This document shows, piece after piece, positions 38,260 through 58,619 of a DNA stretch of 64,000 nucleotides. This stretch comes from a virus, in IMG/VR virus record IMGVR_UViG_3300009130_000005, positions 1 through 64,000 of that record, one strand, 5' to 3'. The notes beneath the pieces were generated by a model that saw only the letters and a program-made list of their open reading frames with translations, made no database searches and was not told where the DNA came from. The translations under genes were made by a program, and so were the position numbers. The first letter of the stretch is position 1, and each line of letters starts with the position of its first letter.

Positions 38260-38657
38260 GGGGGTGTTCTGGATTCGACTGATGTTGGATTCCTGCACCG
38301 CAAGTCGGAGATGCACTTGGCTTCGATACAAATGTGCAAAGCTTTACATGGCGCTAAAAACCGTGTTAGAGCCCTCGGTCTTAAGAACCGTCTCGCTGCA
38401 AAGCGTTTCGGCTTCAAGAGCCGTAAGCTCGCCTTAGCAGCTTAACCTGCTAACCTCTTACCTTTTGACGCAGATAAGGAGGATAAGGGGTCATCGATCT
38501 GCAAAACAGAAAAGGTTTACCTGTTAATAAACTGTAAATAATTGTAACAGGAAGTTCGATGTTAGTATCAACAACTCAAAAAGAAACTAACTAAACTTGT
38601 AGACGTGCTTGATTGAAGGCACTCAGGACGCGGGTTCAACTCCCGCCACCTCCACCA
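38260..38657 (+). ncRNA. ssrA: tmRNA
   Basis: GGGGGTG/CACCTCC acceptor stem with G3:U, GGATTCGAC, T-arm GCGGGTTCAACTCCCGC, ACCA end, pk1 (TGCAC/GTGCA + GCTT/AAGC), tag frame ending LALAA-stop. Confidence 0.95.
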
Positions 38658-45167: not shown

Positions 45168-45634
45168 TGGCAAATCTTAAAGATTTAGATTTAGCTTATT
45201 TAGACATGGCTTCTAGGTGGGCAGAACTATCAAAAGCTGTAAGAAAAAAGGTTGGATGCCTTATAGTTAAGGATGGAATGATTATTTCTGATGGTTACAA
45301 TGGAACCCCTAGCGGCTTTGATAATGTTTGTGAAACTAGCATTATGCCAGATTCTATAGCTCCAAAAGATTTAAACGATCACCCTGCAAACGCCTTAATA
45401 ACAAGGCCAGAAGTTCTTCATGCAGAAAGCAATGCAATCACAAAACTTGCAAAATCAACTCAGTCCAGTAACGGAGCAACAATGTATATAACAATATCTC
45501 CTTGTATGGATTGTGCAAAGCTAATAATACAATCGGGAATATCAAGGGTTGTTTACGGTAAATTTTACAAAAATGACAGTGGAATTAAATTATTAAAACA
45601 AGCCAACATAGAAATAATTAATTATGAAAATTAA
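45167..45634 (+). CDS. dCMP deaminase
   Basis: GYNGTPSG, HAESNAI, SPCMDC. Confidence 0.92.
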   Translation: MANLKDLDLAYLDMASRWAELSKAVRKKVGCLIVKDGMIISDGYNGTPSGFDNVCETSIMPDSIAPKDLNDHPANALITRPEVLHAESNAITKLAKSTQSSNGATMYITISPCMDCAKLIIQSGISRVVYGKFYKNDSGIKLLKQANIEIINYEN

Positions 45635-46055
45635 ATTCAAAAAACTTCACCCTAAGGCGAGAACCCCAGAGCAAGCGCATGAGCATGATGCAGGCTTTGA
45701 CCTTTATGCTTGTAGCATGGACTGGTCAGTTAACGAGGCTAGCGGTCTTTATACTGAGTACGGAACAGGTTTAGCTTTTGAGATTCCAAAAGGTTATGCA
45801 GGCTTTTTATTACCTAGGTCAAGCATATCAAAAACACATCACATGCTAAAGAACTCTGTTGGCTTAATAGACTCTGGGTACAGGGGAGAGGTAAAATTTA
45901 GATTCTCTCCAGATTCAACTAGAAACGCATATGTTGCAGGAGATAAGATTGGCCAAATAGTTTTCTTGAAGCTGCCAGCAGTTCAACTAGAAGAGTCAGA
46001 AGAACTTTCTAATTCTCTTAGGGGAGATGGTGGCTTTGGTTCAACAGGCAAATAA
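45624..46055 (+). CDS. dut: dUTPase
   Basis: AGFDL, PRSS, GLIDSGYRGE, RGDGGFGSTG. Confidence 0.95.
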   Translation: MKIKFKKLHPKARTPEQAHEHDAGFDLYACSMDWSVNEASGLYTEYGTGLAFEIPKGYAGFLLPRSSISKTHHMLKNSVGLIDSGYRGEVKFRFSPDSTRNAYVAGDKIGQIVFLKLPAVQLEESEELSNSLRGDGGFGSTGK

Positions 46056-46071
46056 TTTTTAAAATTTTTCC

Positions 46072-46100
46072 TTGACCATTTATATAATATATGGTATTAT
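46072..46100 (+). promoter_or_regulatory. sigma70 promoter
   Basis: TTGACC-17 nt-TATTAT, preceded by TGG. Confidence 0.65.
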
Positions 46101-46109
46101 TATTCCATA

Positions 46110-46292
46110 ATGAAAAACCAAACTTTAAACAAAGATGGATCTGTCAGGAAACAAGGAAGCGGCAGAACAAAAGGTTCCACTTCTTTTACGACAGTAACTC
46201 TTGGAGAACTCAAACCATTCATCGGAGACAGAACACCTATTGTCGTTAGTAGAGTTTGGCTCCAAAAAATTGGATTTATTAAAAATGTATAG
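46110..46292 (+). CDS. Small basic hypothetical protein
   Basis: GRTKGSTSF; directly after the promoter. Confidence 0.65.
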   Translation: MKNQTLNKDGSVRKQGSGRTKGSTSFTTVTLGELKPFIGDRTPIVVSRVWLQKIGFIKNV

Positions 46293-46821
46293 AAACAAAT
46301 TCGACAAGGACGGAAAGTGTTCGAGGGAAGGTCATTCAGCAGAAGATCTTTTTGAAGAACTGGCAAAAACAAAAGGTTATCTCACAAGAAGGGCAACGAG
46401 AGAAGAAAACATGCACAAACATATTGACATGTTCCTCGAAGGCAGAGACTCCAAAAGCAAAAAGTCCACAGAGGTTTCTGTGGACATAAAAGCCAGAAAA
46501 AGAACATCTCGCAGGGATAAAAAGTTTAATGATGAATGGATTTGGGTAGAACTCAAAAATGTCCAAGGAAGAAAGGGTTGGATTTACGGAGATGCCAACT
46601 TCATAGTCTTCGAAAGAGAAAAAGATTTTGTAGTAGCCTCAAGGCGAAGCATTATTGAATTAATCGAATCAAAAGTTAGGTTTGATTTAGGCTTTGTTGA
46701 TAGGGCTTATCAAGCAAAATATCAAGTCTACCAAAGAAGGGGGCGTAGAGACCAGATTACACAAGTAAAAATGTCAGATATATTAAAACTAAAAAATGTT
46801 TCAAAATGGAACAAAAACTAA
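46285..46821 (+). CDS. PD-(D/E)xK-like nuclease / phage protein
   Basis: AE...HIDMF...VDIKA, WVELKNVQGRKGW. Confidence 0.55.
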   Translation: MYRNKFDKDGKCSREGHSAEDLFEELAKTKGYLTRRATREENMHKHIDMFLEGRDSKSKKSTEVSVDIKARKRTSRRDKKFNDEWIWVELKNVQGRKGWIYGDANFIVFEREKDFVVASRRSIIELIESKVRFDLGFVDRAYQAKYQVYQRRGRRDQITQVKMSDILKLKNVSKWNKN

Positions 46822-46822
46822 A

Positions 46823-47014
46823 ATGAGTCTAAATAATAAAATGATGTATGTAGTAACAAGAGGAGGCAGAAGAGTAGAGCCCAATAATTACGACAACGAA
46901 GAAGATGCTCAAGTCAGAGCTTCCAAATTGGTTGAAATGCTCAAGAAGTGTTCGCCACGCTGTGCTGGAAAGGTTGGAATCGTTAAAACAAAAAACCCTA
47001 ATACAATTACATGA
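46823..47014 (+). CDS. Hypothetical protein
   Basis: ORF in operon. Confidence 0.6.
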   Translation: MSLNNKMMYVVTRGGRRVEPNNYDNEEDAQVRASKLVEMLKKCSPRCAGKVGIVKTKNPNTIT

Positions 47015-47205
47015 AAACAGGAATGATAGACTATATACTTAACAAGTTCTGCCCACTTCTTATTGTTGCAGTGCTATGTTTTTTAAAAATGGGCGCAAAT
47101 ACCTTTGAGCCATATATTATACTAGGTTTAATGCTTTATGCTTCTTACTTTAATTATAAAGTCGGATACGCAATGGGCATTTGCGAGAGCAGAGGATTGA
47201 TTTGA
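47011..47205 (+). CDS. Small membrane protein
   Basis: Two hydrophobic segments. Confidence 0.6.
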   Translation: MKTGMIDYILNKFCPLLIVAVLCFLKMGANTFEPYIILGLMLYASYFNYKVGYAMGICESRGLI

Positions 47206-47206
47206 A

Positions 47207-47347
47207 ATGAAAGGTAAATACTATTCCCCAGACCCTTCTAAAGAAGTAAAACTTCTCTCAGATAAGGTAGAGTACCTTGAGAAAAAAATAAGGTCAAAAC
47301 TAGATTATCTACTCAAAGAAATTCAAAAACTCAGGGATAAAAAATAA
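47207..47347 (+). CDS. Small coiled-coil hypothetical protein
   Basis: MKGKYYSPDP..., fills the gap. Confidence 0.5.
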   Translation: MKGKYYSPDPSKEVKLLSDKVEYLEKKIRSKLDYLLKEIQKLRDKK

Positions 47348-47706
47348 GCCCAACAACAATATCTTTAATTATTGCAGTCATTGTTTTAGTTGCATTGGCG
47401 ATAAACCTTAATGTCAGACTAAAAAAACTTACAGAAAAACAAAAGAAAGATCTGTCTCAAAGAAAAAGCAGAGAAGTTTTATTTGGACAGTCTGCAGAAA
47501 AAATTGCCCCTTTTCTAGATGAGTTTGGATTTGACCCAAGAGACTCTCAGTTCTTAGGCCAACCAATTGATTATGTAGTTTTCGACGAAGAAGAAGTTTG
47601 TTTTGTTGAAATAAAAACTGGCCAAGCTCGACTAACTACAAAACAAAGAAGAATAAAAAAACTCATAGAAAACAAGAAAGTTTCTTGGAAAGAATTAAGG
47701 ATATGA
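47344..47706 (+). CDS. Holliday-junction-resolvase-like endonuclease (Endonuc_Holl) with N-terminal TM helix; start uncertain
   Basis: GQSAEKIAPF, FLGQPIDYVVF, FVEIKTG, QRRIK; frame open from 47341. Confidence 0.75.
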   Translation: MSPTTISLIIAVIVLVALAINLNVRLKKLTEKQKKDLSQRKSREVLFGQSAEKIAPFLDEFGFDPRDSQFLGQPIDYVVFDEEEVCFVEIKTGQARLTTKQRRIKKLIENKKVSWKELRI

Positions 47707-48290
47707 TTAGTCATGAGCGCAAGTGCATATTTATACATATCCCCAGATGCGGAGGAAGCTCCATGGAACTTGCTCTCGAGGGAAAATCTGCATTTAATCG
47801 CAAAGAAAAGCATCTTATAGCAACAACAGCAAAAAGAATATACAAAGATTATTGGGATGATTATTTTAAATTCTCTTTTATAAGAGACCCTTGGGATAGG
47901 ACAGTTTCATTGTCAAGATGGCCATGGTTTTATGGGTGCAGAGTTAGAAAAGGAAAACTATTAATAAAAGGTTTAAAAAACCTAATAATAGACCCAAGAT
48001 CCAAGAGCAGATTTGACAGAAAAAAACTAAAATTTAAAAAAAACGCAGTCTATTTAAATATCCTTAACGAAGAAATTGACTTTATAGGTAGGTTTGAAAA
48101 TCTACAAGAAGACTGGTTGTACGTCTGCAAGCAAATAGGCTTAGAGCAAAAACCTTTAGGTAATATAAAAAAGTACAAAACCAAATTGAAATATCCACAC
48201 AGGAGCTACTATACTACAGAAACAAAAAATATTGTACAACAAATACACCAAGAAGATATAAATTATTTTAATTATAAATTTGAATATTAA
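47703..48290 (+). CDS. Sulfotransferase
   Basis: FIHIPRCGGSS, RDPWDRTVS, IGRFE. Confidence 0.87.
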   Translation: MISHERKCIFIHIPRCGGSSMELALEGKSAFNRKEKHLIATTAKRIYKDYWDDYFKFSFIRDPWDRTVSLSRWPWFYGCRVRKGKLLIKGLKNLIIDPRSKSRFDRKKLKFKKNAVYLNILNEEIDFIGRFENLQEDWLYVCKQIGLEQKPLGNIKKYKTKLKYPHRSYYTTETKNIVQQIHQEDINYFNYKFEY

Positions 48291-48316
48291 CTTTGCGCAG
48301 TGTACATAACATAGAT

Positions 48317-49036
48317 ATGGCTAAGAAAAAACGTCCAGCGTTTAATATACCACAGCTCAAACAGAATATTGTCGTAAATTCACTAAAGCTCGACGACAAG
48401 CAATTACATTTTCTAGAAAAGTCTTTATCAAAAAAGACTAAGATAATGTTTGTAAATGGGCCAGCAGGAACGAGCAAGACATACATGGCGGTTTACTCTG
48501 CTTTAAGGTTACTTTCATCTGAAGATGATTTAGATCTTGTTTATGTAAGAACCGTTATAGAAAGTGCCGATAAAGGACTAGGAGCATTGCCAGGAGACCT
48601 TGCAGAGAAATTTAATCCGTACATGATGCCCTTGATGGATAAGTTAGATGAAATGCTACCTCAAAATACATCACTAAAGCATGACTTGTTGGAAAAGGGT
48701 AGAATATCAGCTATGCCAATAAATTTTCTGAGAGGCGCGAGCTGGATTAACAAAGTTATTGTTGCAGATGAAGCGCAAAACTTCACCTTTAAAGAGCTAG
48801 TAACTTTAGTTACAAGAATAGGGGAAAACACAACCCTATTTATATGTGGAGACACAATGCAGAGTGACATAAATGGAAAGAGTGGCTTTGACACGATGTG
48901 TAATATATTCAACAATTACAAGAGCAGACAAAAGGGAATAGAGCATTTCCAATTTACAGAAGATGACATAAAGAGAAGCTCTATATTAAAATATATCATA
49001 TCTACAATTAACGAACACAATGAAAAGAACAGGTAG
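48317..49036 (+). CDS. phoH: PhoH-family ATPase
   Basis: GPAGTSKT, LGALPGDL, FLRG, DEAQN, GDTMQSD; start 12 nt after GTGTA. Confidence 0.92.
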   Translation: MAKKKRPAFNIPQLKQNIVVNSLKLDDKQLHFLEKSLSKKTKIMFVNGPAGTSKTYMAVYSALRLLSSEDDLDLVYVRTVIESADKGLGALPGDLAEKFNPYMMPLMDKLDEMLPQNTSLKHDLLEKGRISAMPINFLRGASWINKVIVADEAQNFTFKELVTLVTRIGENTTLFICGDTMQSDINGKSGFDTMCNIFNNYKSRQKGIEHFQFTEDDIKRSSILKYIISTINEHNEKNR

Positions 49037-49604
49037 ATATTCATCCATGCCAGATGGATACAGAAGCTCGGATTGGGGCAATAATCACTCGTGTATACCT
49101 GTAAATATGTCAAGATACGCTATAGAAAAATACATTTCGAACAACAAAAAAGGTTTTCTTGGCAAAATTAGCAATTCCTATTGGGACCACTGGGATGCAG
49201 CAGTTTGTGTTAAATTAAAATTTAAAGAATGCGAAGCATTAGCTTTTGCAAATTTAGAACCCTATAGATTTCAAAAATTAACCGATAAAGAAATGAGGAG
49301 CAAAAGTGTAGTCTCGGCAAAATATGCCTTTGCTGAAGCAGCCACTATTGCGATAGAAAGATTATGCTTAAAGGCATTAATCAAGCTTGAGGATGCAGAT
49401 AATATAGACATAACATGCTTCCACTTTAGAAGAATTGACTCAAAAGCAGATGGCTTGATTTTTTTTGGAAGCAATGAGGACGCTTCGATTATAATAAATC
49501 CAACGGCAGAAGAATTAGAAAGAGCGGAAGGATTTGAGAGTTACAATATAGAGTTTAACAAATATAAAGGTCAATCACGCAACGGAAAATATATTTATTC
49601 CTAA
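49020..49604 (+). CDS. Hypothetical protein
   Basis: 194-aa ORF. Confidence 0.6.
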   Translation: MKRTGRYSSMPDGYRSSDWGNNHSCIPVNMSRYAIEKYISNNKKGFLGKISNSYWDHWDAAVCVKLKFKECEALAFANLEPYRFQKLTDKEMRSKSVVSAKYAFAEAATIAIERLCLKALIKLEDADNIDITCFHFRRIDSKADGLIFFGSNEDASIIINPTAEELERAEGFESYNIEFNKYKGQSRNGKYIYS

Positions 49605-49613
49605 AAAAAAGAC

Positions 49614-49642
49614 TTGACTAAATCACATTTATCAGCTATAAT
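49614..49642 (+). promoter_or_regulatory. sigma70 promoter driving the orphan RNA
   Basis: TTGACT-17 nt-TATAAT, followed by boxA-like TGTTCTTTTTAAA. Confidence 0.75.
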
Positions 49643-49686
49643 ATAACTCATATTTCAAACTGTTCTTTTTAAATTTTATTGACTTT

Positions 49687-49896
49687 GGAAGTTCTCGACG
49701 GAGGCTTCCTGTGGGTGACCGAACAAGCCTGTCGTTAGCGGGCTAAGGTATGCAGATTCCCTGTGGTGGGGTAGCAGAGTCCAATCGGATGAGCTAAAGA
49801 CCATATACCGAGTCTAATCTGTGGTTCGAAGTAGGAAAACATTGAACTGATGTTAACGCCGAAAAGTTGGAGGTATTCAGTAGTCCTTCCCCACAC
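49687..49896 (+). ncRNA. Unassigned structured non-coding RNA (~210 nt)
   Basis: GC-rich island without a long ORF between promoter and terminator; multiple helices, long-range TGTGGG/CCCACA pairing, possible pseudoknot. Confidence 0.72.
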
Positions 49897-49903
49897 TTAT
49901 TTT

Positions 49904-49932
49904 AAAACCCCCTAGAAATAGGGGGTTTTTTT
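49904..49932 (+). terminator. Rho-independent terminator
   Basis: AAAACCCCCTA-GAAA-TAGGGGGTTTTTTT. Confidence 0.9.
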
Positions 49933-49945
49933 ATTATTATATTTA

Positions 49946-50200
49946 ATGTTTTACATCAAGAAAGATCAGGATAATAGAGACGCAATTTCCTTAATAGAAG
50001 AAGTTATAACTGCGCACAAATCCCTTAAAAAAGAAAAAGAAAAAAGGGTTCTTGATTTATACATGGAATTGCCCAACGAAAAGCTTTTCGAAGAAATTTA
50101 CCTAGAGGAAGAGGAAATACGAAATATAGATATTCAAATTTCTGGAATAGAATACGCAAGAGATTACATTAAGCTAATGACAAAGATTTCAAAAAAATAG
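49946..50200 (+). CDS. Hypothetical protein
   Basis: ORF. Confidence 0.55.
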   Translation: MFYIKKDQDNRDAISLIEEVITAHKSLKKEKEKRVLDLYMELPNEKLFEEIYLEEEEIRNIDIQISGIEYARDYIKLMTKISKK

Positions 50201-50242
50201 CAGAGAATACTCAAGAATAAAAATCTTCGTGTAATAAAATAT

Positions 50243-50524
50243 ATGAGCAAAGAACCTAATTACTTTATAATCTTCTTAATAGTAATTATTATAGGAATTT
50301 ACTCAATATATGAAAAATGTAATGCTAAAAACAAAGAACTAATGAATATTATCGAACAACAGGATCAAGTTATCCTGCAACAAGATAGCGCGATAAAAAA
50401 ACAAGGAGACCTTATATTGTTCTACAATATATTCTACGAACAAAACCGAAACAACCAATACCCTCTTTTCAACCATGACTTTAAGGCAAGCCCTAAGGAA
50501 ATACAATTACAAAACCGTATTTAA
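50243..50524 (+). CDS. Membrane-anchored coiled-coil protein
   Basis: N-terminal TM; GTGTA 9 nt upstream. Confidence 0.6.
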   Translation: MSKEPNYFIIFLIVIIIGIYSIYEKCNAKNKELMNIIEQQDQVILQQDSAIKKQGDLILFYNIFYEQNRNNQYPLFNHDFKASPKEIQLQNRI

Positions 50525-50975
50525 TATTATATTTAAAATTTTTTTGCAAAACAAATCATATTCAGAAGTATATGCCCTAGATGTAAATTTTCTTAATGCG
50601 TGGAATAATCTAGTTAATACAGAAAGTTACGACAACTATAAAAATTGCTCTATCTATTTGGTTGAGATTGAGGATGACCTAGAAGATCCTCCTGAGCAAA
50701 TCGTAGATGTTTGCCTAATAGATTCCGCCGAAGATGCGCTTCAGGCTTTAGATTTTTTATCTTGGGGAGAAATAATTGACTTGGATATTAAAAATTCCAC
50801 CGACCTTTCGGATAAGGAATGCTTGGCATACATTCTTTGGGAAATCACTTTCTGGGGCTTTAGCGACAGTTCGATTGCAGAACAAAAAGCTAAGTTAAAA
50901 AAGTCTCAAAAAGACTGGGAGCGGGTTGAAAAAGAGCTCAAGGATTTATATAATCCAAGAGATGAATCTTTATAA
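50475..50975 (+). CDS. Hypothetical acidic protein
   Basis: LDFLSWGE, ILWEITFWGF. Confidence 0.65.
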   Translation: MTLRQALRKYNYKTVFNIIFKIFLQNKSYSEVYALDVNFLNAWNNLVNTESYDNYKNCSIYLVEIEDDLEDPPEQIVDVCLIDSAEDALQALDFLSWGEIIDLDIKNSTDLSDKECLAYILWEITFWGFSDSSIAEQKAKLKKSQKDWERVEKELKDLYNPRDESL

Positions 50976-51459
50976 AATCCCAACTCACAAGAATTGTCCC
51001 AAAAAAGTTTACGCAGTAGTCGAGATTCCTAAAGGCACCAGCGCAAAATACGAGTATGACCCAGAAATAGGAGTCTTTTTTTATGACAGAAGCCTGCTAA
51101 GTGCAATGACATACCCTGCGAGTTATGGTTTTATCCCAATGACTAAAGCAGAAGATGGAGATGCGCTTGATATTTTAGTTTATAATGCAGTACCCATCGC
51201 AAGAGGTACGGTTGTTGAATGCTTAGTATTAGGAGTGCTAGATATGAATGACGATGGAGAAAAAGATTACAAAATACTTGGCGTCCCTACATCACACGTT
51301 CGATCATATGAAAGCCTTGATGATATTGACCCGCTTTTCTTAGAGGTATCTAAAAACTTTTTCCAACACTACAAAGACCTAAATGGTAAAGATGTCGAAA
51401 TACTTAACTGGCACGACAAACATACTGCAAGAAAAATTATAAATGAAAACTTAATATAA
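50962..51459 (+). CDS. ppa: Family I inorganic pyrophosphatase
   Basis: EIPKG, KYEYD, YPASYGFIP, DGDALD, DYKILGVP, FFQHYK. Confidence 0.93.
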   Translation: MNLYKIPTHKNCPKKVYAVVEIPKGTSAKYEYDPEIGVFFYDRSLLSAMTYPASYGFIPMTKAEDGDALDILVYNAVPIARGTVVECLVLGVLDMNDDGEKDYKILGVPTSHVRSYESLDDIDPLFLEVSKNFFQHYKDLNGKDVEILNWHDKHTARKIINENLI

Positions 51460-58451: not shown

Positions 58452-58527
<76 letters not shown>

Positions 58528-58533
58528 TTTTAT

Positions 58534-58619
58534 GCGGATGTGGCGGAATCGGTAGACGCTACGGACTTAAAATCCGTTGCCCATAGGGCGTGTGGGTTCA
58601 ATTCCCACCATCCGTACCA
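58534..58619 (+). tRNA. tRNA-Leu(TAA)
   Basis: GCGGATG/CATCCGT acceptor, ACGGA-CTTAAAA-TCCGT, long variable arm, encoded CCA. Confidence 0.93.

Follow-up and report, generated by a model that had tools for sequence, protein, structure and literature searches.

The manA RNA was described by Weinberg et al. (2010; PMC2864571) as a riboswitch candidate from marine metagenomes, T4-like cyanophages and two gamma-proteobacteria, where it occupies potential 5' untranslated regions (5' UTRs) of mannose/fructose, nucleotide-synthesis, ibpA and photosynthesis genes; the legend of its figure marks a "pseudoknot?" in the structure. Rfam likewise files manA (RF01745) as cis-regulatory. It has thus been a candidate riboswitch since 2010, and no ligand is reported in the accessible text of that paper or in the other literature checked; a 2020 review of orphan riboswitches does not mention manA (0 occurrences). 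More recently, Ren et al. (2026; bioRxiv 10.64898/2026.07.01.735769, unreviewed) used cryo-electron microscopy (cryo-EM) on manA RNAs of <200 nucleotides (nt), annealed in vitro at 10 mM Mg2+ and 50 C, and reported the first natural RNA-only icosahedral cage. Their RNAs formed decamers, octamers and a pentamer-built, 60-subunit T=1 cage, with pentamers held by kissing loops, either L5-L7' with L8-L9', or L6-P6', L5-L7' and L3-L8'. The preprint still calls manA a putative cis-regulatory 5'-UTR element and assigns it no biological role. Here, a manA RNA is described from positions 1 to 64,000 of the virus record IMGVR_UViG_3300009130_000005 (the whole 64,000-nt stretch being the window below), together with the relatives that show how its gene is built.

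A longer form of manA in large marine phages

The plus strand of the window at 49687-49899 matches RF01745 in an Rfam model search with 83.4 bits against a gathering score of 55.2 (E = 9.5e-20), and the match spans the entire model, positions 1-192. A covariance-model search finds one manA copy in the 116-kilobase (kb) virus record. The RNA gene is genuine: it is folded, comes from an uncultured phage of marine origin and belongs to the catalogued manA family. The original prediction, made from the sequence alone, had suggested a possible new class, perhaps ribozyme-like, and had itself named a strong match to a known family as evidence against novelty; the Rfam search returned such a match, and the new-class idea is therefore refuted. 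Nothing in favour of a ribozyme was found, and the protein-binding scaffold of the same prediction may still hold. For the window alone, then, the supposed new RNA class turns out to be a catalogued one.

Relatives were collected from viral contigs with a pattern drawn from the conserved 3' part of the RNA, giving 44 viral loci, with manA confirmed by Rfam in 40; the other four (L017, L020, L025 and L027) lack an Rfam match because the hit sits at the edge of the locus. A further 19 loci came from a second pattern that was less strict. The first scan holds two forms: a classic one (13 loci, 5 distinct sequences, 189-198 nt, 164-177 bits) and a longer one (27 loci plus the window, 20 distinct sequences, 205-214 nt, 64-93 bits), whose sequences are 75-88% identical to that of the window. 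The window's RNA, with a core of 213 nt, is this longer manA variant, carried by large uncultured marine phages. Over both scans the longer variant comprises 37 distinct sequences of 205-216 nt, all on uncultured viral contigs, and the classic form is also found in 37 cyanomyovirus or single-cell records. Two further viral contigs, L057 and L059, perhaps a third variant, combine the two-block manA pattern with a divergent middle, and the 260 nt upstream contain no boxA-like box.

The carriers were characterized in several ways. Among 50,697 phage records, blastn with the window locus or with relative L006 gave no match, and no cultured carrier of the longer variant was found; 185,579 prokaryote genomes gave 0 matches to the exact pattern, a result that rules out close copies only. 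A search of viral contigs with the 194-amino-acid (aa) protein encoded upstream of the RNA likewise yielded no relatives. In the window's record, T4-type gp23, gp32 and psbA were not found, the gp23 and gp32 negatives holding within a record completeness of 76%, and the same searches do recover gp23 and gp32 in cyanophage P-HM2. Five large carriers of the longer variant (four rated complete, 180-214 kb) each have one manA copy, and gp23 and psbA were found in none of them.

The fold of the RNA, as derived from the Rfam alignment and from the relatives, has the following parts:

49687-49899 (+): manA-family RNA core, supported by Rfam RF01745 and covariation
49687-49709 (+): hairpin P1 of the consensus fold
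49710-49715/49890-49895 (+): closing helix P2, invariant
49718-49720/49747-49749 and 49726-49732/49738-49744 (+): helix P3, with loop L3 at 49733-49737
49733-49737 (+): loop L3, CGUUA, pairing with UAACG at 49854-49858
49751-49757/49817-49823 (+): helix P4
49759-49761/49768-49770 (+): helix P5, with loop L5 at 49762-49767
49765-49767 (+): GGU of loop L5, pairing with ACC at 49807-49809 in L7
49772-49775/49793-49796 and 49779-49782/49787-49790 (+): extended helix P6
49799-49801/49812-49814 (+): helix P7, with loop L7 at 49802-49811
C49827-G49866 (+): lone covarying pair (CG 15, GC 4, UA 1)
49854-49858 (+): UAACG, partner of L3, on the 3' strand of the hairpin in the remodelled P8 region
49869-49876/49883-49889 (+): helix P9

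Folded by itself, the window's sequence is not significant (z = -1.71; 11 of 200 shuffles fold as well), and its promoter alone is only suggestive, so the case for the RNA is made by comparison with relatives. From 20 distinct cores, RNAalifold derives a fold of 51 pairs, and compensatory changes are seen in 19 of these. Once two loop contacts are added, 99.0% of cells are paired, double changes occur in 23 of 53 pairs, and none of 500 shuffles attains the covariation score; slid registers give 2-4 double-change pairs. The double changes fall in P1, P3-P6 and P9, P2 being invariant, and by eye the P7 pairing GAC/GUC becomes AGC/GCU in L031 and UAC/GUA in L032. Five of the eight helices that the original prediction had read by eye are borne out by Rfam and by the 20 relatives: GGAAG/CTTCC, the invariant TGTGGG/CCCACA, AGCCTGT/GCGGGCT, CAGATT/AATCTG and TAGC..GTCC/GGAT..GCTA. 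The remaining three (GGTAT/ATACC, GGTTCGA/TTGAACT and TTAAC/GTTGG) find no support; ATACC and TAAC take other partners, in covarying loop-loop contacts.

The first of these contacts, between L3 and UAACG, is complementary at 5/5 positions in 20/20 aligned sequences with no violation, and three positions vary (CG 17/GC 2/UA 1; GC 18/AU 2; GC 19/UA 1). As it was discovered in that alignment, it was retested on the independent cores of the second scan, where all 15 that could be parsed, out of 17, are complementary at 5/5 positions and show three haplotypes; the window's own compensated L3 pair is a fourth. The second contact, between L5 and L7, reads GGU:ACC in 20 of 29 parsed sequences, GGC:GCC in 5, U.G in 1 and U.U in 3, such that a U-A pair changes to C-G in 5/29. 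(Neither tally includes L057 and L059, which resisted parsing, and the one for L5:L7 also omits L053.) Numbering the hairpins from the 5' end, in the order of the Rfam consensus, would make the two covarying contacts the L5-L7 and L3-L8 contacts of the preprint. By eye, L3:L8 pairing is not evident in the classic copies.

Where RF01745 has a regular P8 stem and hairpin, the Rfam alignment marks five non-pairs in the window, and the longer variant carries a G.A/A.A module with C49827-G49866 as its single covarying pair. This replacement of the classic P8 stem explains the lower bit scores of the longer variant; it is a feature of the variant and no bar to membership in manA.

Promoter, boxA-like leader and terminator

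The RNA core sits between signals for its own transcription:

49614-49642 (+): sigma70-type promoter, with -35 TTGACT at 49614-49619, a 17-nt spacer and -10 TATAAT at 49637-49642 (11/12 matches)
49650-49686 (+): transcribed 5' leader, predicted to be single-stranded, with the box TGTTCTTTT at 49661-49669 and an A/U spacer containing ATT at 49670-49686
49904-49932 (+): intrinsic terminator, with an 11-base-pair (bp) GC-rich stem at 49904-49914/49919-49929, a GAAA loop and 7 T (-16.7 kcal/mol)

By itself, the promoter is only suggestive: the plus strand of the window has 4 sites with at least 11/12 matches, relative to 1.56 +/- 1.26 (maximum 5) in 100 Markov-1 random sequences. It becomes convincing because a homologous promoter, TTGAC[ATC] with a -10 box at a spacing of 16..18 nt, stands upstream of the RNA in 25/32 distinct relatives. 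Transcription would start near 49649-50. In 21/32 distinct relatives a perfect-stem terminator of at least 9 bp follows within 160 nt of the core, and a fresh TTGAC promoter stands after the RNA in 24/32. The plus strand has no open reading frame (ORF) of at least 30 aa between 49604 and 49946, which leaves about 290 nt after the promoter free of one. The near-consensus promoter, the segment with no long ORF and the perfect terminator of the original prediction are thus all confirmed. Its further view of a transcription unit acting on its own is supported by the promoter, leader and terminator layout conserved in relatives, by the unrelated genes downstream and by a cyanophage copy lodged between tRNA genes, both described below. 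With leader and terminator, the transcript would be about 285 nt long rather than the roughly 210 nt of that prediction.

Between promoter and core, relatives of the longer variant share a conserved box that is unpaired in the consensus fold and occurs once per locus beside the RNA (L030 has one extra copy, and the copy in L017 lies far from its edge-truncated match). It resembles the boxA of the E. coli rrn leader with its spacer, taken as reference in the form printed by Prasch et al. (2009; PMC2724277). Measured against boxA UGCUCUUUA and its AUU-containing spacer, 31/36 relatives match at 13-15/17 positions, relative to 42/1440 control windows that reach at least 13/17 (L047, with only 20 nt of upstream sequence, was left out). 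The 17-mer match lies at an offset of -22 to -26 in 21/36 relatives, and the window's box stands at the homologous offset of -25. Other ideas about this region, namely the 5' box as an antisense seed to start codons, its pairing with the core and a hammerhead-like CUGAUG, were inspected by eye, showed no covariation and were dropped. No paper in the open literature was found to treat manA as a free-standing gene or to report a boxA-led variant, although the additional files of Weinberg et al. and Tables S2-S3 and Figures S13-17 of the preprint may show that variant or the helix numbering.

Two features of other manA loci may be recorded here. In one phage group (L009, L010, L029, L031, L022 and L028), pyrimidine-rich tails with C-runs, such as CUCUCAUCCCCC, lie 1-25 nt past the core and before the terminator; they look anti-Shine-Dalgarno-like, and the window has no such tail. 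Upstream of classic manA, cyanomyoviruses have a terminator-like hairpin that carries the -35 TTGACA as its loop (GAGGGTG-CTTGACA-CCCTC, followed by a T-run and TATAAT), a compact terminator-promoter cassette found in L067, L069 (~1440-1490) and L070 (~1445-1490), and also in L034/L035 and in L011 upstream of manA.

As for expression, one 160-nt contig of the marine metatranscriptome run X20 lies on 49703-49862, a weak hint that the RNA is made. On a 3.2-kb stretch around it, the run otherwise covers only 48745-48889 (~145 nt, in phoH), and since these are contigs, the gaps between them are uninformative. The contig has G for A at 49807, which turns the L7 ACC into GCC and, with U49767 unchanged, leaves a U.G pair in that population.

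Neighbouring genes and mode of action

Downstream of the terminator, two features bear on whether the RNA controls its neighbour:

49913-49940 (+): weak promoter-like site, TAGAAA-16-TATTAT (9/12), with its -35 in the terminator loop and its -10 ending 5 nt before an ATG
49946-50200 (+): next gene, an 84-aa ORF of family A with no Pfam or PHROG match, probably not controlled by the RNA

The same weak layout precedes the next ORF in the relative L002, and it may drive a leaderless message. Family A ("MFYIKK", 84-104 aa) is found in the window, L002, L004, L005 and one second-scan locus, with phoH upstream and pyrophosphatase downstream. At thirteen other loci the RNA is followed by a member of family B, an ORF of about 84 aa with its own promoter. 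The two families are unrelated (hhalign probability 0.3%), and neither has a Pfam or PHROG match; the idea that the downstream ORF is a conserved protein partner was dropped for want of such a relation. The window (45624-51459) and L002 (122-5203) also share a longer gene order: dUTPase, PhoH, a 171-194-aa gene of unknown function, the manA RNA, an 84-87-aa ORF, a small ORF, a DUF6557-sized ORF and inorganic pyrophosphatase, with the Pfam match to DUF6557 itself in the window only.

The neighbours of classic manA are equally diverse: gp32 at 13 metagenomic loci and in P-HM2, purL-hsp20-purM in P-SSM2, small ORFs in P-SSM4 and S-SSM5 (the latter with a terminator-like hairpin past the RNA, by eye) and an opposite-strand gene in P-TIM68. 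A role as a gp32 operator was rejected for the window, as no gp32 was found in its record. In the cultured cyanophage S-CREM1 (OP535465; PMC9964418), a manA RNA of 215 nt (96.6 bits) occupies precisely the space that separates tRNA-Leu from tRNA-Asn, a position from which tRNA processing would release it. The S-CREM1 tRNA array (L065) holds more than manA: a wcaG RNA (1246-1343, 92.7 bits) lies just upstream of the array promoter and an abiF RNA (2032-2068, 52.2 bits) between tRNA-Asn and tRNA-Gly, such that three catalogued "regulatory" RNAs lie in or beside one tRNA array. The window, too, has further RNA genes on its plus strand, namely a phage transfer-messenger RNA at 38260-38657 (132.1 bits over the full Rfam model, not reported by ARAGORN) and, roughly 9 kb past the manA gene, tandem tRNA-Thr(UGU) and tRNA-Leu(UAA) at 58452-58619.

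Because the layout recurs in relatives, the downstream genes are unrelated and the S-CREM1 copy stands between tRNAs, a free-standing RNA is favoured over a 5'-UTR switch. The best explanation, to which a probability of roughly 55% is given, is a free-standing manA gene whose boxA-aided transcript of about 285 nt joins with other copies into pentamer-based oligomers. Host sigma70 RNA polymerase would start near 49650, and the boxA-like leader, degenerate in the window, would recruit factors of the NusB/S10 type, much as rRNA operons do, allowing this untranslated RNA to be made quickly and to escape premature termination by Rho. Transcription would then stop at the intrinsic terminator, and the RNA copies would join through their L5-L7 and L3-L8 pairs into closed oligomers like those seen by cryo-EM for other manA RNAs. 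Antitermination of the rrn type acts mainly on Rho-dependent termination and leaves strong intrinsic terminators working, which would fit a unit that ends at 49932.

Several points weigh against this explanation. The window's box TGTTCTTTT is degenerate, with 7/9 matches to the rrn boxA and 12/17 with the spacer, a level that 167/1440 controls reach, and the window lacks the hairpin found upstream of the box in another phage group. The next ORF begins 14-16 nt past the T-run in the window and in L002 with only the weak 9/12 site between, which leaves room for control by read-through, and some classic copies do look like 5' UTRs, where gp32 begins 46-47 nt and purL 17 nt past the RNA and no terminator intervenes. 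Assignment of the loops to L3, L5, L7 and L8 of the preprint follows the hairpin order in the Rfam consensus, and covariation cannot tell contacts within a molecule from contacts between copies. The cryo-EM source is unreviewed and concerns RNAs of <200 nt in vitro, and the longer variant does not appear among the constructs in its accessible text. Finally, support from RNA sequencing is a single low-depth contig with no transcript ends, and DNA carry-over could account for it.

The rival explanations differ in how much of this evidence they absorb. A cis-acting riboswitch or attenuator, in which a ligand-sensing core sets read-through at 49904-32 into the 84-aa ORF, a 93-aa ORF, DUF6557 and pyrophosphatase, has on its side the label given to manA by Rfam and by Weinberg et al. 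(2010), the classic attenuator order of promoter, folded RNA, terminator and ORF, the short distance that separates T-run and ORF in both the window and L002, a gap lacking a strong promoter, and the classic copies 17-47 nt upstream of purL or gp32. Against it, each terminator stem is self-contained; the stems vary in sequence from relative to relative and lie anywhere from 3 to >100 nt from the core in the 21/32 that have one, and no mutually exclusive pairing of terminator and core is conserved, the P2 strands matching the terminator arms over at most 4-5 bp (by eye). A terminator separates the RNA from the next ORF in the window, a fresh promoter follows the RNA in most relatives, and the genes beyond it form no coherent set, running from two unrelated ~84-aa families through gp32, purL, small ORFs and an opposite-strand gene to a tRNA in S-CREM1. 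The boxA-like leader, moreover, is typical of untranslated stable RNA operons. This riboswitch is accordingly thought quite improbable.

A free-standing RNA that works as a monomer is a somewhat better, though still doubtful, candidate. Here both loop contacts would be internal pseudoknots locking a compact fold that binds or sequesters a host or phage protein; the gene layout fits it equally well, the covariation of L3:L8 and L5:L7 fits internal pairing as readily as pairing between copies, and the "pseudoknot?" in the figure legend of Weinberg et al. (2010) points the same way. Against it, L5-L7' and L3-L8' are intermolecular in the preprint structures of other manA RNAs, and no partner protein is conserved beside the gene, families A and B being unrelated. 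A chance fold or a small protein-coding gene, finally, could appeal to the unremarkable single-sequence fold and to two minus-strand ORFs (42 and 53 aa) that overlap the RNA. The full-length RF01745 match, the compensated pairs, the 1- and 2-nt insertions and deletions by which the relatives differ from one another and the lack of a plus-strand ORF of at least 30 aa make it extraordinarily improbable, and the Rfam match and covariation had already ruled it out.

Significance and comparison with known systems

The genomic anatomy described here bears on the nature of manA. On the strength of its own promoter and terminator, a boxA-like leader in most relatives, unrelated neighbours and a copy in a tRNA array, the variant is probably made as a separate and abundant RNA. 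Its loop pairs have been kept complementary by selection and, by hairpin order, would be the loops that hold the preprint's cages together, such that the question of whether these cages exist in cells becomes a concrete experiment on defined sequences. A bolder extension, for which the odds are low, is that large marine phages make this RNA early in infection from an rRNA-style antitermination unit and build protein-free shells from it inside the host, where each particle would present 10 to 60 copies of the conserved, single-stranded 5' leader and 3' tail as handles for capturing a host or phage factor or message; manA would then never have been a riboswitch, and no earlier RNA-only cage would have had genomic evidence of being made as a dedicated gene product.

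Relative to classic manA, which is likewise a marine phage RNA, the window's form shares P1-P7 and P9, the GUGGU and ACC loops, the GGUAU.CAGUA.UCC hairpin and the CCCAC closing strand. It is longer (213 versus 189-198 nt) and its class scores lower (64-93 versus 164-177 bits), P6 is extended, and the 7-bp P8 gives way to a non-canonical module with one covarying pair, in a region into which L3 pairs. The conserved 5' boxA-like leader is absent from the classic copies examined; in 4/5 distinct ones with a called promoter, only 5-8 nt lie between the -10 box and the core. The longer variant also has its own terminator, and its carriers lack T4-type gp23 and psbA, judging by the window's record and the five large genomes. 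The manA of S-CREM1 resembles the window's in length and score and, not standing ahead of a protein gene, also behaves as an RNA in its own right: tRNA-Leu ends 1 nt upstream of it, and its last bases overlap the start of tRNA-Asn. It differs from the window's in lacking a dedicated promoter and terminator, and the two share no blastn similarity.

In the rrn antitermination leader (boxB hairpin, boxA and spacer, as given in PMC2724277), a single-stranded box likewise follows soon after the promoter of an untranslated RNA, the manA relatives match its UGCUCUUUA + ACAAUUUA at 13-15/17 positions, and one manA phage group places a hairpin ahead of the box, which repeats the boxB-boxA arrangement. 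The window departs from it in its degenerate box and missing hairpin.

The cage-forming RNAs of Ren et al. belong to the same Rfam family, and with 5' to 3' numbering the covarying loop pairs of the window bear the names of their L5-L7' and L3-L8' interfaces; those constructs are <200 nt, shorter than the window's leader-bearing variant, and known in vitro only. Two other phage-borne ornate non-coding RNAs invite comparison. These are ROOL and GOLLD, which lie near tRNA genes. Both are named in the introduction of Ren et al. and, like manA, form RNA-only multimers and have no known function; they differ from it in being several hundred nt long, in bearing no relation to it in sequence or fold, and in assembling into dihedral multimers rather than pentamer-based shells.

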